This document shows positions 8,011-35,591 of a DNA stretch of 37,929 nucleotides, in pieces. Numbering within the stretch: position 1 is the stretch's first letter; each line of letters starts with the position of its first letter. Both the position numbers and the translations under genes were made by a program. Source of the DNA: Candidatus Caldatribacteriota bacterium (GTDB lineage: Bacteria; Atribacterota; Phoenicimicrobiia; Phoenicimicrobiales; Phoenicimicrobiaceae); NCBI GenBank assembly GCA_034660595.1, contig JAYEJO010000095.1, forward strand, positions 1-37,929, in the 5' to 3' direction. A model generated the notes under the pieces. The model was not told the origin of the DNA. It saw only the letters and a list, made by a program, of their open reading frames with translations, and made no database searches.

Positions 8011-8021
8011 ATATTCCTTTC

Positions 8022-10370: not shown

Positions 10371-10390
10371 CCCCTATCTTGTATAAAAAT

Positions 10391-12900: not shown

Positions 12901-12970
12901 TCTTTTAACCTCCGCTTATTATTCTAACATTATCTTAATTTTAATAAAAATTAAAAAAACAAATAAATGA

Positions 12971-13010
12971 AATAAAAAGGGGAAGAGACGATCCTCTCCC
13001 CCTTTTTATT
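12971..13010 (-). terminator. Stem-loop 3' of the SBP gene (partial terminator or stabiliser)
   Basis: aataaaaaggggaagag-acgatc-ctctccccctttttatt, with a U-tract on the minus strand. Confidence 0.75.
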
Positions 13011-13019
13011 AAGTTCTTA

Positions 13020-14270
13020 TTATTTCATTAACTCGTCTAATTGTTCCTGGGCTATCTCTAGTGCTTCATCAGCTGTCTTCTGTCCACTCATTACCTCAGA
13101 TAAAGCTACATTAATCGGGTCCATCCATTTGCCGCCATATTCTTTAAACTTAAATGGTTTTACATTTCCTGCAGACGCACCAAGAAAAACTATTTTATTG
13201 GCTTGTGCTTCCGCTGTATCTTTTTTGAAATAAGGATTATCGGCTAAAGCCTTACGACTTGGTATAGCTAATCCTCGCTCTAAAACCCATTGCTGAGCCG
13301 CTGGACTGGTTAATGCTTCCATTACTTTAAAGGCGGCATCTTTATTCTTAGAATTTGCATTTATACCCCAGGCTACAGTATAAATAAAATTACCTGACTG
13401 ACCAGTTCCGGGGTTTTTAGGTAATAAAGTTGCCCCGTATTTTAAGTTAGGGGCATTATCTCTTAAGAAACCGAGAATCCAGGCACCCTCTAAAGCAGCA
13501 GCTACTTTTTCAGTAGTAAGGGTACCTCCACCCCAACCCTGTCCAATATCAGCTGGCATAACTCCTAAGCCTTTTTCTTTTAATCCGGTATACCAGTTAA
13601 ATGCTTCTTTGAAAGCCGGGTCCATAAGATTAGTTTTACCGTCTACAAAGGGTTCCCAACCAGCAGCATAGGCAAATGCTCCAAATCTGGCAAATTCAGG
13701 TGCCAATGCTAAACCAGTTACTTCACCATCAAAGGCTTCCACAACTTTTGCTAATTTATTTTCTAAATCATCCCAGGTATCATTTTCATTAGGATATTGT
13801 ATGTAAGCAACATCAAAAAGGTCCTTATTGTAGACTAAGGCAAGGGAATTAAAATCTTTCGGAATACCATATACTTTACCTTCAAAGGTAAATGCATCCA
13901 ATAGTGAAGGAATTATATCGTCTTTATTTAATACCTCTGATTTAGCTAAATAATTATCCAGGGGTTCCACTTGGCCTGCTTTAATTATATATTCTGCCCA
14001 GAAGATATCCATATAAAACAGATCTCCAGCTGTGCCGGCAGAAAGGGAATTAATCAAATTCTTCTGAAAATCATCAACAATTGGTTCATAAACTGCTGTG
14101 ATTCCTTTGTCAGCTAATTCAGGAACCACAAACTTATTAATTAATTCTTCTACGATAGACTGATCGGTTCCACCCCAACCTACGATTCTTACCTCAGTTT
14201 CCGCCATGCTTACAGCAGAAAAAACAAGCAGCATGGTTACGATTAATAAAATACTTAAATTCTTTTTCAT
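13020..14270 (-). CDS. Sugar ABC solute-binding protein (CUT1 family)
   Basis: Signal peptide (...AVSMA), GDLFYMD, YGIPKD, YNKDLF and EGAW motifs. Confidence 0.92.
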   Translation of the reverse strand: MKKNLSILLIVTMLLVFSAVSMAETEVRIVGWGGTDQSIVEELINKFVVPELADKGITAVYEPIVDDFQKNLINSLSAGTAGDLFYMDIFWAEYIIKAGQVEPLDNYLAKSEVLNKDDIIPSLLDAFTFEGKVYGIPKDFNSLALVYNKDLFDVAYIQYPNENDTWDDLENKLAKVVEAFDGEVTGLALAPEFARFGAFAYAAGWEPFVDGKTNLMDPAFKEAFNWYTGLKEKGLGVMPADIGQGWGGGTLTTEKVAAALEGAWILGFLRDNAPNLKYGATLLPKNPGTGQSGNFIYTVAWGINANSKNKDAAFKVMEALTSPAAQQWVLERGLAIPSRKALADNPYFKKDTAEAQANKIVFLGASAGNVKPFKFKEYGGKWMDPINVALSEVMSGQKTADEALEIAQEQLDELMK

Positions 14271-14392
14271 TTTTCTCCTCCATAAAATTTATTTTCAAAA
14301 TTACCGAACGAGTATACATCTGTAATAATTTTTACAGCATCTATCCCCTCCTTTCATTTTTTAAATTTACTCTCGAGTATTTCTTTAAGTTG

Positions 14393-15421
14393 TCAATCTA
14401 ATTTATTAATATTAACGGCGCTACAGGAATCTCTAATTATCAACTTTGGTTCTAACAAATATTTTTTTTGTGGTTCTTGTTTTTTTAACTTATTTAAGAT
14501 TAATCTCACAGACCATTTCCCCATACCAACAGCATCCTGTCCAACGGTAGTTAACCTCGGCATGGAATAATCTCCCATAGGGATATTATCAAACCCAACA
14601 ATAGACATATCTGTAGGTAAATTAAAACTATTTTTTTTAAAGGCTCTCATGGCTCCCAATGCCATCAAATCACTGGCAATGAAAATCGCAGTTGGCAGTT
14701 TTTCTAACTTCATTATCTTTTCTGCACATTGATAGCCGCTATCTTCGGTAAAATCCCCTGTAAAAACCAATCTCTCATCGTAAACTTCTCTCTCTTCTAA
14801 ATAACCTTGATAAGCATTTAATCTATCCCAGGAAACCTGAGCATTGCAATGACCATTAATCATAGCTATTTTACGATGGCCAAGTTTCCATAAATAATCT
14901 AAAGCTAACCGAACACCTAATTTATTATCAGTGCTGACAAAATTAACGTTTTCACCTTCTATAAAAGTATCGATAATTGAAATAGGGAAAGTAGAATTCT
15001 TAATTTTCTTGATATGGGGATCATCTAATCGTAAGCCCGTAAATATTGCTCCTTCAGCCCTTCGTTCCTTACATAATTCTATATATGACTTTTCGTTTAG
15101 AAGGTCGCTATCAATGGAAAAAAGAACGATGTCATAATCGTTTGTATTAGCTTCTTCTAAGATACCACCTAAAAACTGTAAACCTAAATCATTACTAAAA
15201 GTATGTTCCTGTCTGCTAAATACAAACACACCAATTGTATTGCTTTTATTGGTTACTAATCTTTTTGCAATTGAATTAGGGGTGTAATCCAACTCTTTTG
15301 CCGTTTCACGAACCTTTCTTTTAAGCTTTTCACTTATATCTTTTCTGTTATTTAAGGCTTTAGAAACTGCTGCGGCGGAAATTCCTAATTTTTTAGCAAT
15401 GTCTTTAATGTTAGAACTCAT
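14393..15421 (-). CDS. LacI-family transcriptional regulator
   Basis: NIKDIAKKLGISAAAVSKALN HTH, YTPN, SIVGFD, IIRDS; likely start is ATG 15421 (AAAGGAG upstream) rather than 15478. Confidence 0.93.
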   Translation of the reverse strand: MSSNIKDIAKKLGISAAAVSKALNNRKDISEKLKRKVRETAKELDYTPNSIAKRLVTNKSNTIGVFVFSRQEHTFSNDLGLQFLGGILEEANTNDYDIVLFSIDSDLLNEKSYIELCKERRAEGAIFTGLRLDDPHIKKIKNSTFPISIIDTFIEGENVNFVSTDNKLGVRLALDYLWKLGHRKIAMINGHCNAQVSWDRLNAYQGYLEEREVYDERLVFTGDFTEDSGYQCAEKIMKLEKLPTAIFIASDLMALGAMRAFKKNSFNLPTDMSIVGFDNIPMGDYSMPRLTTVGQDAVGMGKWSVRLILNKLKKQEPQKKYLLEPKLIIRDSCSAVNINKLD

Positions 15422-15435
15422 CGAGGGGGTTTCTC

Positions 15436-15528
15436 CTTTAACGTTTAAGTAATTTACTAAAAAAATATAATCTTTCAATTACCAAGTGTTTAAAATTTAA
15501 AATTTGAGGGTTTCTTTAACGTTTAAGT
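15436..15528. promoter_or_regulatory. Two identical LacI-type operators, CTTTAACGTTTAAGT (15436-15450 and 15514-15528)
   Basis: Exact 15-bp duplicate, quasi-palindromic about a central CG; one copy overlaps the lacI RBS, the other lies just after the promoter. Confidence 0.75.
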
Positions 15529-15916: not shown

Positions 15917-17014
15917 CTAATGATGGTGCTTGGAAAAAGGTGAGATTTTTTTTATCTTGTGGTTGTTATTAGTGCTTTCTACAAGTTCCTCGAGTTTTTG
16001 TAAGCTATATTTATAAAATTTCTTATAGCGGGGTTTTAATTCCAAATTTAATACTCCCTGATAATTCTTTAGAATACGGAATATTTTATTATAAGGAATC
16101 GCCCCCCAACCTACAGGCATATGTAAATCGCCAATACCAAACTGAATCAGATTAATGTCCTGTTCTTCATATGACAGTTTGGGTTTACCGAAACAATCGT
16201 GAATATGCACATGTTTTATATATGGTAGGGCTAATTTTATAGAATCCAAAAATTTGAAGTGATAATATTTAGAAGCCAGATAAGCATGGCCAAAATCGAA
16301 AGTAATTCCTACATTCTCGCGATCAATCTTCTTAACTTGTTCAACTAATTCTTTAATCTTTGTGCCATAATTATATTTACTAATTTCTCGTAATAAAGTG
16401 GGCTTTGGTGTTTTTGGAGTAAGAACTGAGGGAGGAAGCATTTTATCATTTTTAAATCGTTTTGATAATTCCCAGATAGACTCTTCTTCTACATCTGGAG
16501 AGAGATTTTCAATAGCAATGGTTACTCCTAAATCTTTAGCAAAAGTAGCTAATTCTTGTAAGGTTTTTATTTCTATCTTCTTTAATCTATTAATTTTTCT
16601 TGGAGAAGGTAACTTTAAAAATTTATTTTGTATAATGTTCTTAGTTTTAATTTCTTCCTGTAAAGGAATTTTCCCACTATGGTATACAAAAATTTCTGCG
16701 CCTATAGCATTAGTAAACTCAATTCCCGACTTAAAGATATCCTTTTGTAACTGAAAATTGCTGGGATCCATTAGATTTAATAGATTAGGACCATGAACAG
16801 TGTATTTTAATTTAAATTTCTTCAGGATGTCTGTAATGACCCTGGTCTGCAGCCAATTTAGCCTCCCCTTGAAGATAGCATCAACTCCATGGACAGGTAT
16901 CTCTACATAATCAAAGCCTATATCCTGAAAATCGCCTAAAGCCTCTTCAAATAAATCCAAATCTCCATCTATTGTAGGGGAATCTATATTTATTCCAATC
17001 CCTTTTATATGCAT
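15917..17014 (-). CDS. Xylose-isomerase-like/AP-endonuclease-2 TIM-barrel metalloenzyme with a full EndoIV-type ligand set
   Basis: TVHGP, VYHSG, IEN, FDFGH, HIHD, GDLH, LEL. Confidence 0.8.
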   Translation of the reverse strand: MHIKGIGINIDSPTIDGDLDLFEEALGDFQDIGFDYVEIPVHGVDAIFKGRLNWLQTRVITDILKKFKLKYTVHGPNLLNLMDPSNFQLQKDIFKSGIEFTNAIGAEIFVYHSGKIPLQEEIKTKNIIQNKFLKLPSPRKINRLKKIEIKTLQELATFAKDLGVTIAIENLSPDVEEESIWELSKRFKNDKMLPPSVLTPKTPKPTLLREISKYNYGTKIKELVEQVKKIDRENVGITFDFGHAYLASKYYHFKFLDSIKLALPYIKHVHIHDCFGKPKLSYEEQDINLIQFGIGDLHMPVGWGAIPYNKIFRILKNYQGVLNLELKPRYKKFYKYSLQKLEELVESTNNNHKIKKISPFSKHHH

Positions 17015-17057
17015 ATCTCCATCTACAAACCAAATATATTTTTACTAATTATTTCAC

Positions 17058-17085
17058 ATTATAGCACAATCAATTTCATATACAA
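17058..17085 (-). promoter_or_regulatory. Possible internal promoter for the TIM-barrel gene
   Basis: TTGTAT-N16-TATAAT with an extended TGn. Confidence 0.4.
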
Positions 17086-17135
17086 GGCCTTCACAGTCTT
17101 TACATAAATATATTTTAAAACTTTTTTAAAACTTT

Positions 17136-18020
17136 CTACCTCCCCCCCTTTATACCTCCTAAGGTAATTTCCATTAAATATTTCTGAGTAAATATGAAAA
17201 AGAGTATAACTGGCACCATATAAAATAAAGAAACTGCTGCCAAAAGACCATAATCACTAAACCTATAATCTGAAACAATAGCACTTATATATGAAGTCAA
17301 GGTCCAACTGGAGTAACTTCTATTGAAAGTAATTACAAAGATATATTCTGACCAGCCCATCAAAAAAGAGAAGATAGAAATTGCTGCAATTCCTGGTTTA
17401 ACTATTGGTAACATCACTTTATGCCAAGCTTGAAAACGAGTAGCCCCATCAATTAAAGCAGACATCTCCATATCCCAGGATATTCCATCAAAAAACCCCT
17501 TCATTATCCAGATTCCAAAAGGAGTAAAGAAACCGGCTTTAGCCAAAACAACTCCGGTTATTGTATCCAACAAATTGAGAGTTTTTAAAATATAATATAA
17601 GGCTATTAAAAGGGTAATTGCTGGAAAAGCGTGGAGAACAAGGGTAGAAGCCAATAAAAAGGATCTGCCAGGAAATTTCATTCGAGAGATTACATAACCA
17701 CCCAAGGTGGAAACTGTTACTACTATTACGGTTACCCCCAAACCAAGATAAAGGGTATTAAATAAAATTGGCCAGATGCTTGGCCAGTCAGGATTTTCAG
17801 GAAAAGGATTTTCCCATAGGAAACGCCAATTTTTTAGGGAAAAACTTTTAGGAACAATTCCATATACTAATTCTCCACTAAATGAACCAGCAAAAAGCCA
17901 GAGGTAGCCCATCACAATCCCAATCGAAATTATAGTTAAAAAGATAAAAATCCCAACTTCTCGAAAATTAATTTTTTTTCTTCTTCTATTTATAATTTTA
18001 TTATTGGATTCTTTAAACAT
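17136..18020 (-). CDS. Carbohydrate ABC permease (MalG-like)
   Basis: EMSALIDGATRF EAA motif, PGIAAISIFSF, about 6 TM segments. Confidence 0.9.
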   Translation of the reverse strand: MFKESNNKIINRRRKKINFREVGIFIFLTIISIGIVMGYLWLFAGSFSGELVYGIVPKSFSLKNWRFLWENPFPENPDWPSIWPILFNTLYLGLGVTVIVVTVSTLGGYVISRMKFPGRSFLLASTLVLHAFPAITLLIALYYILKTLNLLDTITGVVLAKAGFFTPFGIWIMKGFFDGISWDMEMSALIDGATRFQAWHKVMLPIVKPGIAAISIFSFLMGWSEYIFVITFNRSYSSWTLTSYISAIVSDYRFSDYGLLAAVSLFYMVPVILFFIFTQKYLMEITLGGIKGGR

Positions 18021-18036
18021 AATTTATTCCCCACCA

Positions 18037-18933
18037 TCAAACAATTTCAATTTTAGGTTCTTCCATCATTTCTTTAAATCTAAATATTCGCCAATAAAAT
18101 ATAGAAGCAATAATGCCCACAATAACTAATATTGTTGCCAGGGCTGCTCCATAACCAAATTCGTAAGTTCCAGCATAAGAACTAAAAGCTACTTTATAAG
18201 AATATAAAGACCAAACGGTTGATTTGAAATACGGACCACCTTCCGTAATTAGTAATATATATTCATAGGAAGTTAATAGAGATAGAGTTTGATAAGCAGT
18301 TATAAAAGCTAAAGGCCAACGGATCATAGGTAAAACTATATAGCCTATCTCTTGTAACCAGGTCGCCCCATCAACTCTAGCAGCCCATAAGTAATCTTTA
18401 GAAATAGACTTTATGGCCGAGGCAAAAATTACCATTCCCATTGAAGCTCCAATAATACCATTAGTTATAATAATTACTTGCCAAGGGAAATTTGAAATCC
18501 AGGGCATATAATCATATCCTAAGAACGAATTTAGTAAACCCTCTTTCATAGGAGATAAAATCCAAAGCCAAATAACTCCATAAACTACAGGGGGCGTAAA
18601 TCGAGGTAAAAGCCAGATAGTCCTAAAAAATATACCATTTTTTTCTCTTATACTGGTAGTCAATATAGCTAAAATCAAACCAAAAGTAACATTAAAAATT
18701 AATAATGTTCCAAAAGTATAAACAAAGGTAGTTAATACTATTTTTTGTACTAAGGGATCAATAAGCATCTTAAAGTAATTATAAAGACCAACAAAGTTCC
18801 ACTGAAAACGATAGTCCATATTAGTAAAACCCATAATAGTAGTCATAACAGCGGGGGTAATAAAGAAGATTACAGTAAATAATATAGCTGGTAATAGGAA
18901 TAAAAAAATCTTTAAATATGCACTTCTACCCAA
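18037..18933 (-). CDS. Carbohydrate ABC permease (MalF-like)
   Basis: WAARVDGA EAA motif, YGAALA; likely start is TTG 18933 (AAGGAG 7 nt upstream), because ATG 18969 sits in a hairpin. Confidence 0.88.
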   Translation of the reverse strand: MGRSAYLKIFLFLLPAILFTVIFFITPAVMTTIMGFTNMDYRFQWNFVGLYNYFKMLIDPLVQKIVLTTFVYTFGTLLIFNVTFGLILAILTTSIREKNGIFFRTIWLLPRFTPPVVYGVIWLWILSPMKEGLLNSFLGYDYMPWISNFPWQVIIITNGIIGASMGMVIFASAIKSISKDYLWAARVDGATWLQEIGYIVLPMIRWPLAFITAYQTLSLLTSYEYILLITEGGPYFKSTVWSLYSYKVAFSSYAGTYEFGYGAALATILVIVGIIASIFYWRIFRFKEMMEEPKIEIV

Positions 18934-18967
18934 TAATTTTCTCCTTGTTTTAACTATAAAAAGATAC

Positions 18968-19004
18968 ATAGAGAGGCCTTTGAATTTAAAGAAGGCCTCT
19001 CTAT
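18968..19004 (-). terminator. Stem-loop 3' of the SBP gene
   Basis: atagagaggcctt-N11-aaggcctctctat, perfect 13-bp stem, no clear U-tract. Confidence 0.65.
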
Positions 19005-19023
19005 AGTTATTTATTAATCTTTG

Positions 19024-20406
19024 CTACTTCACAATTACTTGATCGCCTAATTCTGATTTCATCCTATCAACCCAGAAATTTAAGGCATCTTCAGGGCTAA
19101 CCTCTCCAGTTTCTACACCTGCAATTGCTTCGAATAAAGTTTCCCAATAAAATGGTGCTTTAGCATGATTCGGAGCAAAATTAGTGTATTTTAATACTTT
19201 AGTAATTTCTTTTACATATCTTGCTTCTGCATATGGTCTAAAGGCTAACTGAGATTCTCTGATTGCCAGATGTCCACTTCCCAAAGCATGTTTAGTGTTC
19301 AGGTCAATGTCAGAGGCTAAAGCAATTATTAAGAAAGCCAGGTCTTTATGTGGCGAAGCCTTAGTAATTAGATGTACTATAGGATGAGATACTGATACTG
19401 GTTTTCCTCCTTTAACTGCAGCAGGTATCGGAAACCATCCGATATTCTTCCACTCATCCTCTTCAGAAACTTTGTAGGGATCTCTTTGCCATTCGGCCCA
19501 ATTCCAGGAACCACCGGTAAGAAATATTCCAACTTCTCCTTTTGTCCAGGCAGTATGAATATCTCTCCAAGCTATCTGAGACATAGCCCCCGGGGTTACC
19601 CCTAAATCAACTAATTTCTTAATATACTGTAAAACTTTCAGGGTAGCACTTTTATCTACTACCAGTTTACCGGTCTCCGAATCCGAGATTTCTCCACCAT
19701 AAGAGAAAATAAACTGGAACCAATCAGTACCCGGAGTAGGACGATGCCAGATACCTTTTCCTTTTTCCACTACTCCAGCATCTACCATTTTCTTACCTAA
19801 TTGGGCTAGATCATCAAGGGTGAATTCTCCTTTTTCCACCTTTATTGGAAGATTTACAATCTCTTCTTCGCTCCAACCTAAGGCCCGTAATTTATCTTTT
19901 CGGAACCAGGTTATTCTACATTCTGTATCCTGAGGAATCCCCCATATTTGTCCTTTAAATTTTGCGCAGTTCCAGAGAGCCGGGAAAAAGTCTTCATATA
20001 CTTCTGAATATTTTGCAATATAATTATCCAAAGGTATTATATAGTCAGCCAAGGCATAAGGTCCAATATCTTCATGCCCGGTTACAATTATATCGGCAAT
20101 TTTTTCTGGGTCTTTACTTTGCAGGGCCAATAAATTACTCAGTTTAAAGTCAGCCCATTTAGTAGTACAGAAAGTAGCATCCATCTTTACTCTTATGTTT
20201 GCTCCCGTTGCCTCCAGATATTTATTTAAACGAGCAGCTGCCTCTTCTAAATTAGTCTTTCGAGTAATAGAGGGGTCATCTGGCCCCACCGTCCAAGCTT
20301 TAATGGTTACAGTTTTAACTTCTCCCTGAGCGAGAGCAATACCCGCAACACTTATTACGAATATTACAACTAGTATAAAGCTAATCAAACTCTTTAAAGA
20401 TTTCAT
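19024..20406 (-). CDS. Sugar/polyol-phosphate ABC solute-binding protein (resembles Thermotoga/Thermococcales inositol-cluster SBPs)
   Basis: Signal peptide (...GIALA), GIPQDTE, IWHRP and SHP motifs; inositol specificity is inferred from context. Confidence 0.85.
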   Translation of the reverse strand: MKSLKSLISFILVVIFVISVAGIALAQGEVKTVTIKAWTVGPDDPSITRKTNLEEAAARLNKYLEATGANIRVKMDATFCTTKWADFKLSNLLALQSKDPEKIADIIVTGHEDIGPYALADYIIPLDNYIAKYSEVYEDFFPALWNCAKFKGQIWGIPQDTECRITWFRKDKLRALGWSEEEIVNLPIKVEKGEFTLDDLAQLGKKMVDAGVVEKGKGIWHRPTPGTDWFQFIFSYGGEISDSETGKLVVDKSATLKVLQYIKKLVDLGVTPGAMSQIAWRDIHTAWTKGEVGIFLTGGSWNWAEWQRDPYKVSEEDEWKNIGWFPIPAAVKGGKPVSVSHPIVHLITKASPHKDLAFLIIALASDIDLNTKHALGSGHLAIRESQLAFRPYAEARYVKEITKVLKYTNFAPNHAKAPFYWETLFEAIAGVETGEVSPEDALNFWVDRMKSELGDQVIVK

Positions 20407-20544
20407 TTTTCTTCCTCCTTTAAGATTTGAAAATTTTTCCTTAAAATATAGATTGATTGCTTTTCCTTTTTACCACCTCCTTATAAATTTATTTGTCCTG
20501 TCAGAATTCTCCGTCTTCTCTATTTTGTAAATGACAGTAATATT

Positions 20545-21642
20545 CTAATTTAATAATAATGATTTTTCTGTATTTTTGTCAAAAAGATGAATCTTACTTG
20601 TATTAAAGTGTAGTTTGACCTTTTCGCCCATCTCTTTTGTAAATGGGGGAAGGGTTAGCACCTTAATTTGCAAATTTCCCAGTTTAACAGTGACTAAAAC
20701 TTGCATCCCCATAGGTTCAACCACATAAACTTCCGCCTCTTCTCCTTTTTTGTGGTCAATCTTTACATCCTCCGGCCTGATACCCAATATTACTTCTTTA
20801 TCTTGAGAACGAGAATGAATAAGCTTACCAATCTTTGAGGGAATTTCAATGGTAATATCTTCATTCTTTAAAAAATATTTTTCTTCTGCCTGTTCCAAAG
20901 AAACATTAATAAGATTCATGGGTGGGCTTCCTATAAAACCGGCTACAAACAGATTCACCGGTCGATTATATAGCTCATCAGATGAACTATATTGCTGAAG
21001 TTCCCCTAACTGTAGCAAGGCTATTTTATCAGACATAGTCATAGCTTCTATCTGGTCGTGAGTTACGAAAATGGTGGTAATGCCCAATTTTTTCTGTAAT
21101 CTCTTAAGCTCCGCTCTCATCAAGGTTCTAAGCTTGGCATCTAAATTGGAGAGGGGTTCATCTAAAAGTAAGATATCTGGCTTCTTAATTAAAGCTCGAC
21201 AAAGAGCCACTCTTTGTTGTTGTCCCCCGGAAAGTTGAGCAGGTTTTCTATCTAATAATTCTTCTATCTGAACTAATTTAGCTACTTCTTTGGCTCTTCT
21301 CTCTCTTTCGTCTTTAGGGGTCTTTCGTAACTTTAAAGGAAATACTATATTATCTAATACGGTCATATGAGGATAAAGGGCATAACTTTGAAAGACCATA
21401 CCGATTTTTCTATCTTTGGGTGGAACTTCATTTACAATATTGTTCCCGAAATAAATATTTCCAGTAGTGGGCTTGTAAATTCCAGCTATCATAAGTAGGG
21501 TGGTGGTTTTTCCGCATCCTGAAGGCCCAAGTAAAGCTACAAATTCACCATCGTTTATCTCGAGGTCAAAACTATTTACTGCTTTTACTTTTCCAAAGTG
21601 TTTACTTAAATTTTTAAGCATTACTTCCATTTTCTTTGCCAA
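20545..21642 (-). CDS. MalK-type sugar ABC ATPase
   Basis: GPSGCGKTT, VFQSYALYPH, LSGGQQQR, DEPLSNLD, FVAGFIGSP, C-terminal TOBE region. Confidence 0.95.
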   Translation of the reverse strand: MAKKMEVMLKNLSKHFGKVKAVNSFDLEINDGEFVALLGPSGCGKTTTLLMIAGIYKPTTGNIYFGNNIVNEVPPKDRKIGMVFQSYALYPHMTVLDNIVFPLKLRKTPKDERERRAKEVAKLVQIEELLDRKPAQLSGGQQQRVALCRALIKKPDILLLDEPLSNLDAKLRTLMRAELKRLQKKLGITTIFVTHDQIEAMTMSDKIALLQLGELQQYSSSDELYNRPVNLFVAGFIGSPPMNLINVSLEQAEEKYFLKNEDITIEIPSKIGKLIHSRSQDKEVILGIRPEDVKIDHKKGEEAEVYVVEPMGMQVLVTVKLGNLQIKVLTLPPFTKEMGEKVKLHFNTSKIHLFDKNTEKSLLLN

Positions 21643-21683
21643 TCTCTTTATTATTTTTATGCCTTACTTAAACTAAAAATTAT

Positions 21684-21714
21684 ATTTTACATTAACTTTA
21701 TGCATATAGAGCAA
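21684..21714 (-). promoter_or_regulatory. Candidate MerR-activated promoter (19-bp spacer with dyad)
   Basis: TTGCTC-N19-TAAAAT containing the dyad CTATATG|CATAAAG. Confidence 0.5.
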
Positions 21715-21723
21715 TGAAAAATT

Positions 21724-23046
21724 TTACTTACTTTTATAAAAAATTAAAATTCTTCTTATATTCTCTGTATTCATTAATAAAGCAATAATAAACAAAACTA
21801 AAGCTGGCTGATTTATTAAGGTCCCTATAAATATAATACCTATTCGAACATCACGTCCTATTCTAAAGTAGTGTTTTCCGCGAGTAAGATTTTTTTTCAT
21901 TAAACCATCATATTTATCAGCAGTATAGCTATTCATAAAAGCACCGATGATAGCCAAAAATCCTATAAATAGATATAATAAATTTTCTCCTAAAAAATAT
22001 ACATAATAAGTTAAACCAAAAAGAAGGAAGGCATCTGCATAACGGTCCAAGACCGCATCATACCACCCTCCAAATTCTGAGGTTTGAAACTTTAAGCGGG
22101 CAATCTCTCCATCACAGCCATCAATAATAGAGGCTATTTGCGCCAATATTCCGCCAACTAGTAAATTAGCATATCCCCCAAAAAAGAAAAAAAGAGCACC
22201 CATCATAGAAAAGATAAAAGAAAATAAAGAAATCTGATTAGGGGTAATACTTTTTTTTAAAAGATATTTTGAAATTCTAATGGAAATTGGACGGTTTAGA
22301 TATCTGGATACAGGTCCGTCAGACACTTTTTTTAAATTAGCTAAAAGAATATTTTCTGCCTTCTTAAATGCATTTTCATCATCTACATCAATCCAATATT
22401 TACCTTTAATATCAAAGACTCTTGACTTTTTCTGTTTGGCTAATATTTTTATTCCCGCTGAAAGAGAAGTATCACCATTGTCTGAACTTTCTTCTAAAGC
22501 CTCAAATATTGCCGGCGAACAAAGAAATATTCCGGTATCATAAGCATTATATTTTTTAATATTCTTTCCGATGTTTATAATTCTTCCTTTATCATCAACC
22601 AAAACTTTGGTAACATCATCAATATCAACAGTTTTGTTCTTAAGATTATGATCTACTGCCAGTATAATTTCTCCGTCAGCAGCTTTCTCCTGAAGCAACT
22701 CTCTCAATATAGATTCGTCAAAGATATGGTCACTCATCAGTAGAATAAAATTCTCATCTATCTCTCTTTTTGCCTTAAGAACAGAAAGTCCATTTTCTTT
22801 TTCCCATTGATTATTTATAAGATGAGTTATTTTTAAGTCTCTGTTCCGGGCAAATTGGTCAAGGCGGTTTCTTAGTTTTTCTCCATTATAACCAGTTACT
22901 ATGTAGAAATCGGTAATACCTGCTCCCTTAGCATTTAATATTACTCGTTCGATAAGGGGTATTTCTAAAAGGGAAACGAGCGGTTTAGAGTTACCCCTGT
23001 TAGATAATCTACTTCCTTCTCCTGCAGCAATTATCAAACATTTCAT
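21724..23046 (-). CDS. Bifunctional inositol-phosphate cytidylyltransferase / di-myo-inositol-phosphate-phosphate synthase (IPCT/DIPPS)
   Basis: N-terminal nucleotidyltransferase (IAAGEGSRL..KPL, NGLS, MSDH, DTG, WIDVD) fused to a CDP-alcohol phosphotransferase (DGPVSRYLNR, DGCDGEIAR..GGWYDAVLD, RDVR). Confidence 0.88.
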   Translation of the reverse strand: MKCLIIAAGEGSRLSNRGNSKPLVSLLEIPLIERVILNAKGAGITDFYIVTGYNGEKLRNRLDQFARNRDLKITHLINNQWEKENGLSVLKAKREIDENFILLMSDHIFDESILRELLQEKAADGEIILAVDHNLKNKTVDIDDVTKVLVDDKGRIINIGKNIKKYNAYDTGIFLCSPAIFEALEESSDNGDTSLSAGIKILAKQKKSRVFDIKGKYWIDVDDENAFKKAENILLANLKKVSDGPVSRYLNRPISIRISKYLLKKSITPNQISLFSFIFSMMGALFFFFGGYANLLVGGILAQIASIIDGCDGEIARLKFQTSEFGGWYDAVLDRYADAFLLFGLTYYVYFLGENLLYLFIGFLAIIGAFMNSYTADKYDGLMKKNLTRGKHYFRIGRDVRIGIIFIGTLINQPALVLFIIALLMNTENIRRILIFYKSK

Positions 23047-23150
23047 TTCTAATCATCTCTTTTTTTATAAGGATGCTAAAATAATATTGCCTATTAAATT
23101 TAATTCCTAATACTTGTAGTACAATTTTACTTTTTTTCTCTTTCTTCCAC

Positions 23151-23993
23151 TTAAAGATTAATCCCCATCAAAGAAGCCCTTTTAATAAGTCTGTCAAAAT
23201 CAGGTATCCCGGCTGTCCCTTTTTCCTCTACTGCAAAAGAAGCAACACAATTAGCAAAACGCGATGATTCTATAGGATCATCTGTCTGATAGTATTTTAC
23301 TAAAAAGGCAGCTGCAAAAACATCTCCTGCCCCCGTCGGGTCTTTTTCTTCAGTTTTAAAAGCTGAAAAGATAAATTCTTTACCTCTCCAATATAAAATC
23401 GAGCCTTCTGCTCCTCTGGTTAGAATCACTATTTTTATTAAGGACTTATAATTTTCCAATACTTCAGGAAAAGCTGCAATATCTTCTTCACTAAATATCA
23501 ATACATCTACCTGGGAGTGAACTTTTAAAACAGGCATCCATTTCTTAGGATAAACCTGACCCTTCTCGTCCCATCTTCTCATTAAACCCTGCGGGGTTAA
23601 ACAAATTAAACTATCTTTAAAAAGGGTGAATATTTCCTGATCAACTTCATCAGCTACCGGACAAACATGCACAATTTTTGCCTTATGCCATCCCTGAGGG
23701 ATTTGCTCTTTTTTTATCCTATTTGCTACCTCATTAATAATCTGTTTTCTTTTTCCTTGATAATAAGAATTGTGAAATGTAGTAGTATGAGGAGATACAG
23801 AACCGGCAATATTAATTCCCTTCAACAAACCATCACAAGAAAAGTCTAATCCTTTGCTGGTAATTATTCCAGTAGATAGACCAAGTTTACAAGCGGCAAG
23901 AGAAGAATAAACCGCTGAACCACCAATTAATCTCTCTCCAGGATAAATATCATAAGTTACATGACCTATAGAAATAAATTCTGGACACTCCAT
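23151..23993 (-). CDS. PfkB-family kinase, ATP-type, related to archaeal myo-inositol kinases
   Basis: GHVTYD, GGSAVY, PVADEV, PQGLMR, canonical DPTGAGD; directly upstream of IPCT/DIPPS. Confidence 0.82.
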   Translation of the reverse strand: MECPEFISIGHVTYDIYPGERLIGGSAVYSSLAACKLGLSTGIITSKGLDFSCDGLLKGINIAGSVSPHTTTFHNSYYQGKRKQIINEVANRIKKEQIPQGWHKAKIVHVCPVADEVDQEIFTLFKDSLICLTPQGLMRRWDEKGQVYPKKWMPVLKVHSQVDVLIFSEEDIAAFPEVLENYKSLIKIVILTRGAEGSILYWRGKEFIFSAFKTEEKDPTGAGDVFAAAFLVKYYQTDDPIESSRFANCVASFAVEEKGTAGIPDFDRLIKRASLMGINL

Positions 23994-24053
23994 TATTTAT
24001 CCCTCCCTTTTACTTAACTCATTCTTTTCAGCTTTTTATTACTTTTTATCCTT

Positions 24054-24470
24054 TTATATTTTTTTTCGCTTCTCCAAAAATCCTATTACCTCTTCTAATC
24101 CTTTCTTCACTTTAATCGTCTCGTTTAATCTCTCTTCTGTTTTTATCAATTGAGACTGTAAAAATTTAATCATCTTATCTAATTCGTTATCATCTACTTT
24201 TTCAAAAATATTTTCTTCCACAATCCCGTTTATTTCTTCCATCTCTTTCACTTCTCTTAAGGAAAACCCGGCTTTTTTTAATTGTCTAATTCTTTCAACT
24301 AATTTCACTTTATCATTTTGGTACAATCTGAAACCGCCTTGAGTTTTTTTAAAAGGTTTCAGAAGTCCTTTATCCTCATAATGTTTAATCGTTCGGGGAG
24401 TAACCCTCGTTTTTTTTGCTAATTCTCCTATCTGGATAAATTTTTCCTCTTTTTCCTTTTTATTCTCCAT
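24054..24470 (-). CDS. MerR-family transcriptional regulator (short, no cysteines)
   Basis: IGELAKKTRVTPRTIKHYEDKGLL...GFRLY, GFSLREV, C-terminal coiled coil. Confidence 0.92.
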   Translation of the reverse strand: MENKKEKEEKFIQIGELAKKTRVTPRTIKHYEDKGLLKPFKKTQGGFRLYQNDKVKLVERIRQLKKAGFSLREVKEMEEINGIVEENIFEKVDDNELDKMIKFLQSQLIKTEERLNETIKVKKGLEEVIGFLEKRKKI

Positions 24471-24524
24471 AACAATTTTCCCCTTTGAAATATTTAATAA
24501 ATCCTCCAGTAAAAACCTATCTAT

Positions 24525-24553
24525 TTTATATCATACTTGTACGTATAGGTCAA
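24525..24553 (-). promoter_or_regulatory. merR promoter with an overlapping dyad operator
   Basis: TTGACC-N17-TATAAA with TGn; dyad ACCTATAC|GTACAAGT at 24535-24550. Confidence 0.65.
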
Positions 24554-24575
24554 ATTTAACATAACATTTAGGAGA

Positions 24576-24605
24576 TTGCTTTTCCGCTTTACTCTTTGTT
24601 ATAAT
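24576..24605 (+). promoter_or_regulatory. Promoter of the divergent PfkB gene
   Basis: TTGCTT-N18-TATAAT with an extended TGn. Confidence 0.55.
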
Positions 24606-24663
24606 AACTGGACAAAGAAAATAAAATTATTAGATTATTTAGCTTTATGTTGGAGATGATGAA

Positions 24664-25557
24664 ATGGGAAATAACATTAAGTTTTATGATATTGCCTTCC
24701 TGGGACATTACACTAAAGATACGATTGTTTCTTCCACCGGCACCAGAATTGTTGATGGCGGGGCTTTTAATTACGGTGCCAATGTGGCAACAAGAATGGG
24801 ACTCAAAGTGGCTGCGGTTACCCATCTGGCAAAAGAAGATTTTCATGTAGTAGAAAAACTAAAAGACTTAGATGTTGATGTATTCGTAAAGATCACCCCT
24901 CAGTCTACTTGTCTGCGCCTGGAATACCCTACTTCTAATGTGGATGAACGGGTCATATATGTAACCAGCTCAGCAGGTCCCTTCACTCCCACTGAAGTAG
25001 AAAAAATTCAAGCCCGGGCATTCGTGGTAGGTGCATCTATGCGTGAGGAAGTTAGTCTGGAAGTCATAAAAGAACTGGCGAAAAAGAAAACTATTCTGGC
25101 CGCTGATGTGCAAAGTTTTATCCGGGTAAATGATAATGGTAAATTAGTACCTAAAGAATGGCCTGAAGAACAAGCTGTACTTGCTCTCTTAGACATACTA
25201 AAGACTGATGCGGTAGAAGCAGAGATGTTAACCGGCACATCTGATATTCGGGAAGCTGTCCGAAAAATAGCCGACTTAGGCCCCCGCGAAGTGGTAATCA
25301 CCCACCGAAATGGTCTTTTGGTTTATGCTGATGGTAAATTTTACGAAGAAAAATTCTTTCCTAAAGAAATCAGAGGAAGAAGCGGCCGGGGCGATACCTG
25401 TATTGCCTCCTATGCAGCCAAGCGATTAAATACATCTCCTCAAGAAGCAACTATCTGGGCTGCTGCTGTAACAAGTTTAAAGATGGAAGCAGAGGGCCCT
25501 TTCCAACAAACGATAAAAGAAGTTGATAATCTTATTTTAAGTAAATATAAAAATTAA
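24664..25557 (+). CDS. PfkB/ribokinase-family kinase, probably PPi-dependent
   Basis: GHYTKD, DVQSFIR, LKTD, FFPKEIRGRSGRGDTC, SLKME; GGAG RBS; the only real plus-strand gene. Confidence 0.85.
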   Translation: MGNNIKFYDIAFLGHYTKDTIVSSTGTRIVDGGAFNYGANVATRMGLKVAAVTHLAKEDFHVVEKLKDLDVDVFVKITPQSTCLRLEYPTSNVDERVIYVTSSAGPFTPTEVEKIQARAFVVGASMREEVSLEVIKELAKKKTILAADVQSFIRVNDNGKLVPKEWPEEQAVLALLDILKTDAVEAEMLTGTSDIREAVRKIADLGPREVVITHRNGLLVYADGKFYEEKFFPKEIRGRSGRGDTCIASYAAKRLNTSPQEATIWAAAVTSLKMEAEGPFQQTIKEVDNLILSKYKN

Positions 25558-25631: not shown

Positions 25632-26675
25632 TTACAAAATAAGAAGCTTGCCTTGAGGATTTAATTTAGAATACAAAGCTTTTCTTATCTCCTGTTTTTC
25701 CCTATAAGATCTTATGTGGTTATAATTATCTTCTTGCCAGGGAGGAGAAGTAAGGAGCGATTTTTTAAATGCCTCTAAAAGCTTATCTTCAAATTCCCCT
25801 TTATATTTTCTCTTTATAAATTGTTGAAATGCTTCAGGAAAATTATTCCAGGCTTCCTGTTCATGGCTAGGTGGAGTAGGGTAAAATAATCCGTTATTTT
25901 CTTTTACTGCCTTTAAATCTCCCCCTCCATCACCAATCATTAATACCTGATCATCTTCATACTTACCGGCTTTTTTAGCTACCTCAATATGATGTCCCTT
26001 TGAGCCCATTTCCTGGCCGGCAATAATCTGAACATATTTGGCAATTCCTTGATCTTCCCAGTAATTTGATAAATCTGCATAGGGAGTCTTAGAGACAATT
26101 AATATATCCGTATGTTGAGCCATTAATTCCAAACATTCTTCAACTTTATCAAAGGGAGGAATCTTGGCGGAAATATGGGGAAACATTCGGTTTACTGCTT
26201 CACTCCAACCTAAAAGTTTATATATAGCCAAATCTTTCGAATTTAGATTGAGAAATTCTTCCAAACTCGGATTTCCTAAACCAAATTTATTTTCTTTGGT
26301 ATAAGCAATATACTCATTTAAAGGTTTTATATTGGGTAATTTTACATGCCTTTCCTGTAAAACTTGTTGAACATCTTTTCTGTTCTGAAGAGCGGTAAGG
26401 GTAAGCTGAATAGCAATAAATCTGTTACAACCCCGATCCACAGAAAAAAGGTTATAGTATTCAGCAACTTCTCTAAAATAAGACTCAATCGCCCACAATT
26501 GATAAAATTCCATAAATTGGGGGTGAAAGATTAACATCTGCTTTCCGTTCATATTATCGGTAACACAGCCATCGGTATCAATGGCTATTAAAAAATCTTT
26601 AGTCCTTTTAAAATTTTTTAGCTGTTGCTCCGGATCTTCCTTGATTTGTTTATCAGTAAGCCGGGGTAAGGCCAT
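25632..26675 (-). CDS. HAD-superfamily protein (phosphatase or phosphotransferase)
   Basis: Motif I IAIDTDGC, motif II IVSKT, Lys in GSK, motif IV MIGDGGGD. Confidence 0.82.
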   Translation of the reverse strand: MALPRLTDKQIKEDPEQQLKNFKRTKDFLIAIDTDGCVTDNMNGKQMLIFHPQFMEFYQLWAIESYFREVAEYYNLFSVDRGCNRFIAIQLTLTALQNRKDVQQVLQERHVKLPNIKPLNEYIAYTKENKFGLGNPSLEEFLNLNSKDLAIYKLLGWSEAVNRMFPHISAKIPPFDKVEECLELMAQHTDILIVSKTPYADLSNYWEDQGIAKYVQIIAGQEMGSKGHHIEVAKKAGKYEDDQVLMIGDGGGDLKAVKENNGLFYPTPPSHEQEAWNNFPEAFQQFIKRKYKGEFEDKLLEAFKKSLLTSPPWQEDNYNHIRSYREKQEIRKALYSKLNPQGKLLIL

Positions 26676-26696: not shown

Positions 26697-26830
26697 AAGT
26701 AATGAGTGATGAGTAATAAGTAATATGATTCTTTATTTCTTTGCTCATTGCTACTCACTCCTTGCTTCTCATTCTTGATCTTTCATTTGCTACTTATTAC
26801 TGTTTACTTATTACTTGTTACTTGTTACTT
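26697..26830. repeat. Inverted heptamer arrays (AAGTAAT)n / (TTACTTR)n spanning the pfk-HAD intergenic region
   Basis: aagtaat-gagtgat-gagtaat-aagtaat ... ttactta-ttacttg-ttacttg-ttactt; the right arm includes the pfk stop codon. Confidence 0.8.
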
Positions 26831-28141
26831 ACTTCTATACTCCACCGGTATATATTCTCGGCATTTTTTGGGAACATAAATCTCTTTAAACTTGGCAAAT
26901 CGTGGGAGCGGACTTCCGATAAGAGGCAAAGCCCATTCGATAAATTCATCAGTTACATCTACTTTATCTACACTAATCCACCCTTGGGGGAACTTCCTTT
27001 CTGAATTTGCCACGACATCCAGTGGCACTTTGTCATAGGTAATTTTATAAATTCCACCGGGCTTTCTTATTATGGTTGACATAAAACCATTTTCTCCGGA
27101 TAGAGCAGTTTGGGCGGCATGTGCTCCCACCCGGTAGGCTTCTTCTCTGTCAACTTCCGATACATAGGCAATCTCGCGCCGCTGGCGGGTACCCGGTCTT
27201 TCCGAGCGAGCTATCCCTTTAACTATTAGTCTACTCTCAGCTCTTCCCTGATTATCCTTTCTGTCTGTCCCATTTAGATGATTAATCAGTAATTGTTCAA
27301 CTGTTCTTTTGGATGCACTAAATTGAGGATGACCAAAATTATCCCGCAATATTCCTAAATCCCCAACATTTATTCCCTCCCCGATAACCACTATACATCT
27401 ACTATAATCCTTCAATTTTCTATTAACTTTCTCAGTAATAAATTCCAGATTACCTGAAAAATCATCTTTAGATAAAGCTTCAGGAAGTATAATGAGTAAG
27501 GGCATCTTTCTTTCCGGATCAGCTAAACGCGCTGCTGCCGGGATAAAACCAATCTTTCTGCCCATTACTCCGATAACCAGGATCGGGTCACTGGTATAAC
27601 TGGCCTTATTCTCTTCATTTGCTTCCAAAATATTAATAGCTAAATTCCGAGCCACACTTCCATACCCCGGGTCATGGTCACAAATCGCAAATGTACCATC
27701 TTTCTGTAAAGGTCCTCCCACGTCATTATCAATAGTTTTAGGTATGCCGGTACAAATCAGTTCTAAATTTTCTTTTTGAGCTAATTCACTCACTTTGTTG
27801 GCTGTATCCATGGAATCTCCGCCACCACAATAAAAGAAATATCCCACATTATGTTTTTTGAAGACTTCGATAATACGGACTAAATCCTCATCATTTTTTA
27901 TTTTATATCGGCAGCTGCCGATGGTGCCAGCTGAAGGAGTTTCCGCTAATAAAGCTATCTGGTGAGGTTCTTGAGCAGAGATATCCATCAACTCTTCTTC
28001 TAAAACCCCCAGGATACCCATTTTTGCACCATATATCTTATCAACTTTTTTAGAGAGAATTAATTCATCAATTGCCCCTTTAACGCTATTATTTATTACT
28101 GAGGTGGGGCCGCCTGATTGGGCTATAATTGCATTTTTCAT
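26825..28141 (-). CDS. pfp: Phosphofructokinase-family enzyme, PPi-dependent signature (clade B2-like)
   Basis: AQSGGPT, GSCRYK, GGGDS (Asp) and PKTIDND (Lys), the two PPi determinants; MGR present. Confidence 0.85.
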   Translation of the reverse strand: MKNAIIAQSGGPTSVINNSVKGAIDELILSKKVDKIYGAKMGILGVLEEELMDISAQEPHQIALLAETPSAGTIGSCRYKIKNDEDLVRIIEVFKKHNVGYFFYCGGGDSMDTANKVSELAQKENLELICTGIPKTIDNDVGGPLQKDGTFAICDHDPGYGSVARNLAINILEANEENKASYTSDPILVIGVMGRKIGFIPAAARLADPERKMPLLIILPEALSKDDFSGNLEFITEKVNRKLKDYSRCIVVIGEGINVGDLGILRDNFGHPQFSASKRTVEQLLINHLNGTDRKDNQGRAESRLIVKGIARSERPGTRQRREIAYVSEVDREEAYRVGAHAAQTALSGENGFMSTIIRKPGGIYKITYDKVPLDVVANSERKFPQGWISVDKVDVTDEFIEWALPLIGSPLPRFAKFKEIYVPKKCREYIPVEYRSK

Positions 28142-33616: not shown

Positions 33617-33679
33617 TTTTTTATTACCTCACAAAATCATCATTAAATATTTTTTAATCTTTACAACTATTCTGGTATC

Positions 33680-33829
33680 CAGAAGTCAGTAGTCAGAATT
33701 CAGGATTCTGGCTCCTGACTTCTATTTTCTTTACGAGATACTATCCACGAGATACGAGATACGAATTCAATTTTGCACTTTTCGTTTTTCAGTATATCCT
33801 AAACGCTATACGCTGTCCGCTCTACGCTA
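33680..33829. repeat. Mixed heptamer arrays between gnd and the larA-like gene
   Basis: cagaagt-cagtagt-cagaatt / ttctggc-tcctgac-ttct; acgagat x3; taaacgc-tatacgc-tgtccgc-tctacgc abutting the gnd stop. Confidence 0.8.
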
Positions 33830-35320: not shown

Positions 35321-35344
35321 TTTTTTCCTCTCCTATATTAATAG

Positions 35345-35590
35345 TTGTCTAGTTAACTGGTTTGTCGGTTAATTGGTTATTAATATTAATTTCAATATAC
35401 TTATTCCTCAGCCAGCTAACCAGATAACCAACTAATTATCTAACTCTTTACTTATTACTCATTACACATTACTTGTTGTAGTATTTATTAACTACATACT
35501 CGCTCGATACTATTTTCTTCAGAACTTCTGACTTTTTCTTTCTTAATTTTATTTTTTCACGCGATACTCGATACGCGATACGCGATACTA
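35345..35590. repeat. Mixed octamer/heptamer arrays between the SDR gene and gnd
   Basis: ttaactgg-tttgtcgg-ttaattgg / ccagctaa-ccagataa-ccaactaa; ttactta-ttactca-ttacaca-ttacttg; cgcgata-ctcgata-cgcgata-cgcgata abutting the SDR stop. Confidence 0.8.
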
Positions 35591-35591
35591 A

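Follow-up and report, generated by a model that had tools for sequence, protein, structure and literature searches.

Di-myo-inositol phosphate (DIP) has long been viewed as a hallmark of hyperthermophiles that is made de novo from glucose 6-phosphate. The pathway in Thermotoga maritima, Archaeoglobus fulgidus and the Thermococcales reportedly consists of myo-inositol-phosphate synthase (MIPS, the ino1 product), a bifunctional CTP:inositol-1-phosphate cytidylyltransferase/CDP-inositol:inositol-phosphate transferase (IPCT/DIPPS) and a phosphatase of the inositol monophosphatase (IMPase) type, and in the Thermococcales the gene of the kinase TK2285 is said to lie near that of MIPS. Here we describe a block of nine genes around an IPCT/DIPPS gene in a 37,929-nt contig (JAYEJO010000095.1, assembly GCA_034660595.1) of a Candidatus Caldatribacteriota bacterium of the phylum Atribacterota. 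The whole contig is referred to as the window and the genome it belongs to, which is 98.5% complete, as G000.

The potential for DIP synthesis in Atribacteria is already published. Glass et al. found MIPS and IPCT-DIPPS in two JS-1 Atribacteria metagenome-assembled genomes (MAGs) and proposed DIP as an osmolyte (10.1101/536078); as far as the passages on this subject go, the window resembles those MAGs in its phylum and in having IPCT/DIPPS as an osmolyte pathway in non-thermophilic sediment bacteria. The passages of that paper on inositol and osmolytes mention neither an inositol kinase nor a link to an ABC transporter, the text not having been searched for the word kinase, and the word MerR is absent from it. 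IPCT/DIPPS has also been reported in deep-sea Thaumarchaeota. For the iol/ino locus of T. maritima the relevant parts of two papers (PMC5931981, PMC3750489) give the catabolic genes TM0411-TM0416, which include the pyrophosphate (PPi) dependent kinase TM0415, and the transporter InoEFGK. No publication pairing an inositol 3-kinase with IPCT or DIPPS was found among the matches listed in a literature search. A kinase-fed operon of this kind and its association with a TIM barrel appear to be undescribed.

Domains were called on the open reading frames (ORFs) of the window by means of Pfam and NCBIfam profiles and comparison with the Protein Data Bank (PDB). All nine genes named in a first-pass annotation, made from the sequence alone and including the PPi-type kinase, were recovered in this way. 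The window is AT-rich (33-39% G+C) and carries almost all of its genes on the minus strand. Brine, cold seep and sediment are the labels of the sequencing runs in which the stretch occurs, brine metagenome being that of the runs containing it nearly whole. Eight of the nine genes lie on the minus strand, separated by gaps of 16-138 nt, and the block can be divided into three modules:

24470-21724, minus strand: module A, merR, ATP-type myo-inositol kinase and IPCT/DIPPS
24523-24553, minus strand: putative MerR-type promoter upstream of merR (TTGACC, 19-nt spacer, TAAAAT, imperfect dyad CGTAC-AA-GTATG in mid-spacer)
24054-24470, minus strand: MerR-family regulator, first gene of module A, 138 aa, no cysteine (PF13411, 66.9 bits)
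23151-23993, minus strand: ATP-type PfkB kinase of the myo-inositol 3-kinase (TK2285) kind, 280 aa (PfkB domain)
21724-23046, minus strand: bifunctional IPCT/DIPPS (NTP_transferase and CDP-OH_P_transf)
17087-21705 and 15917-17014, minus strand: module B, malK, substrate-binding protein and two permeases, with the TIM barrel
17087-21705: the ABC cassette of these four transporter genes, an insertion/deletion relative to sister genome G014
20545-21642, minus strand: MalK/UgpC-type ABC ATPase (ABC_tran, OB_MalK, TOBE_2; UgpC subfamily, 406 bits)
19024-20406, minus strand: substrate-binding protein (SBP) of the InoE family (SBP_bac_1)
18037-18969, minus strand: ABC permease, UgpA/MalF-like (BPD_transp_1)
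17136-18020, minus strand: ABC permease, MalG/UgpE-like (BPD_transp_1)
15917-17014, minus strand: MJ1311-type TIM barrel with endonuclease IV (EndoIV)-like metal site, candidate small-molecule phosphoesterase (AP_endonuc_2, 113 bits)
24664-25557, plus strand: module C, PPi-dependent ribokinase-family kinase of the TM0415 type, divergent from merR (5ysp/1vk4, E ~1e-48)

The block is probably a side-by-side arrangement, particular to this lineage, of three inositol-related modules in a JS1-type genome of the Atribacterota, in which module A would make DIP and module B would import and cleave an inositol-phosphate compound. The identities, motifs, distribution and synteny of the genes are observed, whereas all substrates, the regiochemistry of the kinase, regulation and co-transcription are deduced from them.

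The kinase-synthase unit

The synthase of the window is a fusion of a cytidylyltransferase domain (PF12804/PF00483, residues 3-233) and a CDP-alcohol transferase domain (PF01066, residues 268-379). It aligns over residues 1-432 with the characterised IPCT/DIPPS of A. fulgidus (4mnd) at an E-value of 2.4e-55, and this full-length alignment bears out the name given to the gene in the first-pass annotation. CDP-alcohol transferases are marked by the motif DGxxDGxxAR...G...D...D, which is present in the window protein and matches that of 4mnd. As in known DIP producers, the catalytic motif thus sits in a fused protein of about 440 aa. The enzyme would activate inositol phosphate with CTP and condense it with a second inositol phosphate to DIP-phosphate (DIPP), which on dephosphorylation would give DIP.

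The neighbouring PfkB gene, earlier described as inositol-kinase-like, could be aligned over its full length with the myo-inositol 3-kinase of Thermococcus kodakarensis (3w4s/4xf6, E 7e-10, residues 7-239), which supports that description. According to the section of PMC5931981 on this enzyme, its inositol contacts are D12, G26, Q136, R140 and D219. In an alignment counted by hand all five are kept in the window kinase, as D15, G25, Q135, R139 and the aspartate of GAGD. The residues found at the positions of R229, R232, F221 and M266 of the PPi signature are P, A, A and V, leaving a donor site of the ATP type. Along with these contacts and this donor site, the PfkB fold and the linkage to DIP genes are shared with TK2285 (3w4s, 4xf6, 4xf7). 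The window kinase differs in being a distant, bacterial relative that directly adjoins IPCT/DIPPS, in having N in place of L77 and in that kinases of its type apparently replace MIPS instead of accompanying it. The pocket positions L77, L87 and V112, thought to set specificity for the 3-OH, are N, I and V in the window kinase, which would phosphorylate free myo-inositol with ATP, presumably to inositol 3-phosphate. In another genome (G004:C96 3067-3816, L019) the kinase orthologue matches as residues 1-146 and 177-280 in one 257-aa frame, some 30 residues having been lost internally.

The distribution of these genes was surveyed in 86 Atribacterota genomes, using thresholds of E ≤ 1e-40 for IPCT/DIPPS and E ≤ 1e-30 for the inositol kinase and PF01658 for MIPS. 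A closer set of 41 relatives (G000-G040) comprised family f1 (n=25) and its sister family f2 (n=16); related genomes in all counts are non-independent. IPCT/DIPPS was found in 10 of the 86 genomes and the kinase in nine, every one of them IPCT-positive; in the tenth IPCT genome, G014, the contig ends at the start of IPCT. MIPS was present in three genomes (G000, G003 and G079), just two of which have IPCT. The upstream side of IPCT is assembled in eight of the ten genomes and is occupied by the kinase in seven and by MIPS in G079, where it lies directly upstream; a pairing of IPCT with MIPS is known from DIP producers. In six of those seven the kinase is preceded by MerR (G000, G004, G006, G009, G024 and G036), a Sir2 gene sits between kinase and IPCT in G006, and the two are adjacent in G020. 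Within genus g1 the synthase is patchy, occurring in 6 of 19 genomes including G000, which argues for repeated gain or loss.

Since two alternative feeder genes occupy one slot and kinase and synthase co-occur strictly, there is strong support for the kinase feeding IPCT/DIPPS with inositol phosphate. We infer that in most synthase-bearing Atribacterota the kinase rather than MIPS supplies this substrate, and the pathway would then run on scavenged inositol. Known DIP producers differ on this point, the partner gene of IPCT in Atribacterota being the kinase in 7/10 genomes, with MIPS present in 2/10, and also in that the family of the window lacks an IMPase-family gene and in that MerR heads the operon. 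The part of the first-pass interpretation in which a regulated kinase and IPCT/DIPPS turn salvaged inositol into DIP is well supported, based on adjacency in 7/8 genomes, co-occurrence in 9/9 and the scarcity of MIPS (2/10). The single system for import, hydrolysis and resynthesis of which this was to be a part is not supported as a conserved one, as set out below.

As the earlier annotation had it, the block holds neither ino1 nor an obvious DIPP phosphatase. A search for ino1 outside the block located MIPS on contig C73 of G000 (PF01658, 125.6 bits; TIGR03450, 450 bits), with 82% DNA identity to the copy in G003. The N-terminal MIPS domain PF07994 had no match in the genome, a misleading result given that PF01658 and TIGR03450 both detect the gene.

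Regulation of module A may be exerted at the stretch upstream of merR. The arrangement TTGACC-19-TAAAAT has a single exact match in the window, and the stretch is conserved in four genomes, being the same in G009 and G004 and showing one change in G006. Its layout is that expected of MerR-activated promoters, and it may well be one. The regulator would act at this 19-nt-spacer promoter; having no cysteine, it does not belong to the metal sensors of the CueR/ZntR kind, and a metal signal is unlikely. Module A is likeliest to be a unit for kinase-fed, that is salvage, synthesis of DIP from a MerR-type promoter. A widespread subsurface phylum would accordingly appear to make DIP mainly from scavenged inositol, with a kinase, a MerR-type switch and no usual phosphatase. 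This would change how DIP potential should be scored in metagenomes, since the pathway does not need MIPS and the kinase marks it better, and it points to necromass inositol as a resource.

The transporter cassette and the TIM barrel

The transporter of module B has a CUT1 architecture with an InoE-family SBP. Homologues of this SBP at 36-62% identity bear the JGI name 'inositol-phosphate transport system substrate-binding protein', which we take to go back to T. maritima InoEFGK. The window SBP is of the same family as that of T. maritima. It differs in that a quick tree places it in a separate 11-row clade (SH-aLRT 99%), apart from the Thermotoga InoE/iol-linked clade, and in that malK precedes the SBP gene rather than following the permeases.

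The surroundings of this transporter family were surveyed by scanning species-representative genomes with an SBP profile, which gave 80 loci from many phyla, and checking their neighbours within 10 kb. Homologues of the TIM barrel were present in 12 of the loci and TM0415-type kinases in eight. Genes like iolG, iolM, iolN and iolO lie near InoE-family cassettes in Thermotogota, Dictyoglomota, Thermoproteota and others, and TM0415-type kinases likewise lie beside them in these three phyla. One Thermotogaceae locus (L094) carries ADH, GFO/IDH, creatininase-like, TM0415-like, IolO-like TIM and PCC genes followed by SBP, two permeases, MalK and an EndoIV-like TIM barrel; in Thermotogaceae MAG loci such a barrel follows the transporter, as it does in the window. 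Of the 118 ORFs immediately next to the 80 cassettes 113 were scanned, five of more than 800 aa being dropped, and their commonest Pfam families were AP_endonuc_2 (17), glycerophosphodiester phosphodiesterase (GDPD, 10), ABC_tran (8), HTH_11 (8), GH130 (6), DeoR (5) and GFO_IDH_MocA (5). In Acetothermia, a locus with an SBP that shares 66% identity with that of the window has the order GDPD, GH130, SBP, permeases, MalK. The GDPD neighbours suggest that the InoE transporter family may carry glycerophosphodiesters.

GDPD genes directly upstream of InoE-family SBPs were also noted individually at L061 8184-9786, L086 99-1698 and L074 1425-2108. GH130 occurs in two Bipolaricaulota loci of this kind as well, and one case is the cultured Halanaerobium saccharolyticum.

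The closest PDB relative of the TIM barrel in a profile comparison was MJ1311 of Methanocaldococcus jannaschii (3wqo, E 6e-18). As the first-pass annotation proposed, the protein is EndoIV-like: residues H74, H112, E169, D240, H243, H270, D296, H298 and E325 fill all nine metal-ligand positions of EndoIV, as read from an alignment to the Nfo of the same genome (H66, H107, E146, D180, H183, H217, D230, H232 and E262). This set is invariant in 30 homologues and kept in 15 of 17 further locus homologues, among them transporter neighbours in Thermotogaceae and Dictyoglomaceae. The paper on 3wqo reportedly finds the same nine residues in MJ1311 and no DNA-binding groove. In a search of a protein atlas the barrel returned only generic AP_endonuc_2 clusters.

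Several identities were considered for this enzyme and rejected. Unlike endonuclease IV it is not a DNA-repair enzyme, its score of 21 bits with NF002196 falling short of the cut-off of 333 and a separate Nfo (220 bits) being encoded on contig C167. The cobamide phosphodiesterase CbiR was set aside (33.5 bits, cut-off 105; no cobamide genes in the window), as were IolE (24 bits, cut-off 290), IolO (19 bits, cut-off 300) and IolI (1i60, E 0.0015, no significant stretch).

The full nine-ligand set, together with scores far below the cut-offs of the isomerase and epimerase models, makes a metal-dependent small-molecule phosphoesterase likelier than an isomerase, and from the recurrence of GDPD next to the transporters it can reasonably be guessed that an inositol phosphodiester is what they import. 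Import and hydrolysis of such a compound by module B are plausible on these neighbourhood statistics. The InoE-family CUT1 importer would most likely bring in an inositol-phosphate compound (inositol phosphate, glycerophosphoinositol or a DIP-like diester), which the barrel, with its EndoIV-like trinuclear metal site, would cleave in the cytoplasm. This provides a testable substrate class for an orphan enzyme family with a solved structure (3wqo) and for the TM0415-type PPi kinases.

A broader proposal, tentative and rather doubtful at present, is that MJ1311-type TIM barrels with EndoIV metal sites form a class of inositol-phosphate esterases that stand in for GDPD beside InoE importers in at least four phyla. 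Candidate substrates would be glycerophosphoinositol, DIP and glycosylated DIP. If this held together with the MIPS-independent operon, subsurface bacteria would be recycling the inositol solutes and lipid head groups of others into their own stress solute, DIP.

A number of observations weigh against the three-module reading. Because the kinase has N at L77 of the T. kodakarensis enzyme and is of low similarity to it, specificity for the 3-OH is not established. MIPS in G000 means that salvage is not obligatory and that both routes are available in this organism. The synthase reached 309 bits across residues 1-438 with the DIPPS equivalog model NF041135, below its cut-off of 580, the model being built on Thermococcales. 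A comparison of the TIM barrel with Nfo by hhalign gave 51% probability over 76 columns, and the barrel is missing from three of the nine IPCT genomes examined (G006, G009 and G024). The lack of overlap between the 12 TIM-flanked and the 14 GDPD-flanked loci among the 80 is not significant and was discarded as a statistical argument, the 0 overlaps seen comparing with about 2 by chance in genomes that are related. In the quick tree none of the 10 other rows of the SBP clade has iol genes nearby; GH130 stands beside three of them, so that the ligand could be a glycoside. Finally, the 81-nt gap between IPCT and malK has neither an intrinsic terminator nor a clear promoter, which makes co-transcription of modules A and B possible in G000.

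The GH130 neighbours lead to an alternative that is unlikely, yet the best surviving of those considered, namely that the ABC cassette and the TIM barrel are unrelated to inositol. The cassette would import a glycoside or rare sugar (e.g. a beta-mannoside used with GH130 phosphorylases), the barrel would be an isomerase or epimerase, and their position in a variable carbohydrate region would be accidental. One flank of the block is indeed a carbohydrate cluster (LacI, maltose/trehalose-type ABC transporter, GH65 and beta-phosphoglucomutase), GH130 lies in the same slot in G009 and L067, and the nearest SBPs from outside the Atribacterota adjoin GH130. Public annotations name the barrel 'sugar phosphate isomerase/epimerase', and the best PDB matches of the SBP, at E 6e-9 or weaker, are sugar binders. 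The barrel, however, carries the nine-residue EndoIV metal set where ketose epimerases and isomerases have a set of four residues, and isomerase models such as IolO and IolE give it 19-24 bits against cut-offs of 290-300. In relatives it most often adjoins TM0415-type inositol kinases, and GDPD ranks second among the genes flanking this transporter family. Inositol phosphate import and cleavage remain preferred for module B on these grounds.

The first-pass annotation had taken the whole block for a single regulated locus. The corresponding explanation, that all nine genes form one co-regulated system in which a DIP or inositol phosphodiester is imported, hydrolysed by the TIM barrel and rebuilt into DIP by the kinases and IPCT/DIPPS, is distinctly improbable. 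It has in its favour that the eight genes share one strand and short gaps. In a scan of the window, itself of little informative value, 46 promoter-like sites (38.5 expected) and 6 terminator-like sites (7.0 expected) were counted, none of them in the minus-strand intergenic gaps. Moreover, each module has an inositol link, the barrel directly follows IPCT in G014 and in the strain of run X4, GDPD or EndoIV-like enzymes flank transporters of the InoE family, and the absence of a canonical IMPase leaves a possible role for the barrel. Against it, linkage of the transporter to IPCT/DIPPS in relatives, set beforehand as a test, was seen in one of the ten IPCT genomes, G000, where the cassette follows the synthase. 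Elsewhere, 0 of the 80 InoE-family loci carry IPCT, the kinase or MIPS within a distance of 10 kb. Relatives without IPCT/DIPPS commonly have the TIM barrel and the PPi kinase, and the conserved promoter sits in front of merR only.

The modules also have independent breakpoints. At the DNA level G014 matches the window up to 17086 and again from 21706 onwards. The homology with G008, whose 92% SBP orthologue lies on another contig, breaks at 21658 and 21705, and in run X4 of the same study one contig joins 17010 to 21731, from the start of the TIM barrel to the end of IPCT. These sharp breakpoints indicate that the cassette (17087-21705) is an insertion/deletion and that the IPCT-malK junction is specific to G000. 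Only chance-like matches between short AT-rich repeats were seen at its borders, which gives no indication that a mobile element was involved. What lies downstream of IPCT varies from genome to genome, being GH130 in G009, an RRM protein in G006, DUF6804 in G020, RpiR in G004, a TPR-like ORF in G024, the TIM barrel itself in G014 and the ABC cassette in G000. A single regulated locus is not supported. In G000 alone the modules lie end to end, so that DIP synthesis could follow on import, cleavage and phosphorylation; such a chain is physically possible there, the linkage not being conserved.

The loci of relatives point in the same direction of separate modules. A homologue of the TIM barrel (E ≤ 1e-10) was found in 19 of the 41 relatives and full-length IPCT in 9 of the 41. 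G001, G002, G010 and G022 have, in this order, a PPi-type phosphofructokinase, a HAD-like gene, a second ABC transporter, the divergent PPi kinase, the TIM barrel and a second TM0415-type kinase (PfkB3) and no IPCT. G003, G004 and G018 carry a malK-SBP-permease-permease-TIM string that shares about 90% identity with the window in malK and the barrel and only 40-45% in the SBP and permeases, which looks like a cassette swap. In L067, an Atribacterota MAG from an oil field, the slot is filled by a gene for a CoA-enzyme activase, by malK and SBP in truncated form, and then by the permeases, the TIM barrel and a pair of GH130 genes. Given this varied content, the region that the PPi kinase and LacI genes enclose is a variable one.

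All four runs used consist of contigs, and depth in them does not rank genes. Contigs from RNA libraries (runs X19 and X21) cover the TIM barrel, permeases, SBP, malK, merR and PPi kinase and differ from the window by 5-15%; as DNA carry-over is possible they were not counted as proof of expression or co-transcription. An X19 contig that joins 21633 to 24567 (one contig, 32 nt on its shorter side) is no more than a hint that a form lacking module A exists. The low coverage of 17196-20435 in run X5 was not used as evidence of absence.

Some further observations on the cassette and the barrel may be recorded. In L067 (9718-10765) malK (115 aa) and the SBP (254 aa) are cut short, with permeases and TIM barrel intact; the short SBP is 95% identical to the C-terminal half of the window SBP, and an RNA-library contig of run X21 shows a matching 1559-nt skip from 19788 to 21348. 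A second, distant cassette (SBP 30-33%) with one or two TIM paralogues of 28-37% identity exists in G003:C206 (L047) and G018:C134 (L049), and in two of these paralogues the ligand position H298 is N. The TIM barrel orthologue of G020:C62 (24815-25879, L046; 68% identical) contains one in-frame TAG.

The product of the synthase and the last step to DIP

It is very improbable that the synthase homologue makes another CDP-inositol product (an inositol phospholipid or glycerophosphoinositol) for membrane synthesis rather than osmo- or thermoprotection: its C-terminal domain does match archaetidylinositol-phosphate and phosphatidylinositol phosphate (PIP) synthase models at 62-91 bits, its score is under the DIPPS equivalog cut-off, an IMPase-type DIPP phosphatase was not found and the organisms, to judge by the run labels, are not hyperthermophiles, but phosphatidylinositol (PI) and PIP synthases align at E 1e-6 to 1e-10 compared with 2.4e-55 for the fused, full-length 4mnd, G079 pairs IPCT with MIPS as known DIP producers do, and Glass et al. 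interpret the Atribacteria genes, in the passages concerned (10.1101/536078), as DIP synthesis. Synthesis of DIP is therefore retained as the probable function of module A.

The step from DIPP to DIP was traced through the IMPase family. An IMPase-family gene was not found anywhere in G000. The IMPase/SuhB family is present in 0 of the 25 genomes of family f1, in 15 of the 16 of family f2 and in 14 of 14 controls. In known DIP producers the DIPP phosphatase belongs to this family, and with IMPase absent from f1 the last step must use another enzyme. On the broader, rather doubtful proposal made above, the TIM barrels of IMPase-less Atribacterota might also remove phosphate from DIPP; an obligatory role in this step was set aside, since the barrel is not found in G006, G009 and G024, which bear IPCT. 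This missing phosphatase and the alternation of EndoIV-like TIM barrels with GDPD beside InoE transporters are the most interesting loose ends of the analysis.

Next to the PPi kinase, at 25632-26675, lies a gene for a 347-aa protein, a possible phosphatase, which has no match in NCBIfam and is matched only weakly by HAD_2 (26.7 bits, residues 142-259). It is kept beside the PPi-type phosphofructokinase and the PPi kinase in relatives with and without IPCT.

Pyrophosphate-linked and other genes of the window

The divergent kinase of module C was correctly classed as PPi-type in the earlier annotation. It retains the five signature residues K171, F221, R229, R232 and M266, a likeness to T. maritima TM0415, and also T204 and D234. 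Of the acceptor contacts of TM0415 (D11, N78, Q141 and R145), D, Q and R are kept. The site differs from that of TM0415 by N78L, S89I and L116S, a pattern that resembles 'homolog No. 49'. In the part of PMC5931981 that treats it, that homolog made several inositol phosphates and its true acceptor was doubted by the authors, who leave the physiological role of the PPi kinases open there.

One further kinase of this type is encoded in the window:

5967-6851, minus strand: second TM0415-type kinase, PfkB3, 33% identical to the other PPi kinase

PfkB3 keeps K, R, R and M of the signature (4/5, F221 being L), and its acceptor site (I, N, C, L) is TM0415-like. It directly adjoins the TIM barrel in G001, G005, G022 and G002. 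The two kinases belong to a set of four PPi-linked genes within 38 kb (1712-3766, 26825-28141, 5967-6851 and 24664-25557) that also comprises an H+-pyrophosphatase and a PPi-type phosphofructokinase (NF010675, 347 bits, cut-off 273).

The window showed no counterpart to the iolG, iolM and iolN genes of L094. In Thermotoga inositol catabolism has its exit at UxaE, and a tagaturonate epimerase UxaE (590 bits) is encoded at 32330-37911 along with a LarA-N-like protein, a 6-phosphogluconate dehydrogenase and an SDR, which are hexuronate-type genes. On the other side of the block, 7348-15478 holds genes for a beta-phosphoglucomutase-like HAD protein, a GH65 phosphorylase, a maltose/trehalose-type ABC transporter and a LacI regulator. 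They probably constitute a disaccharide phosphorylase pathway and are kept next to the TIM barrel in G004, G008 and L067.

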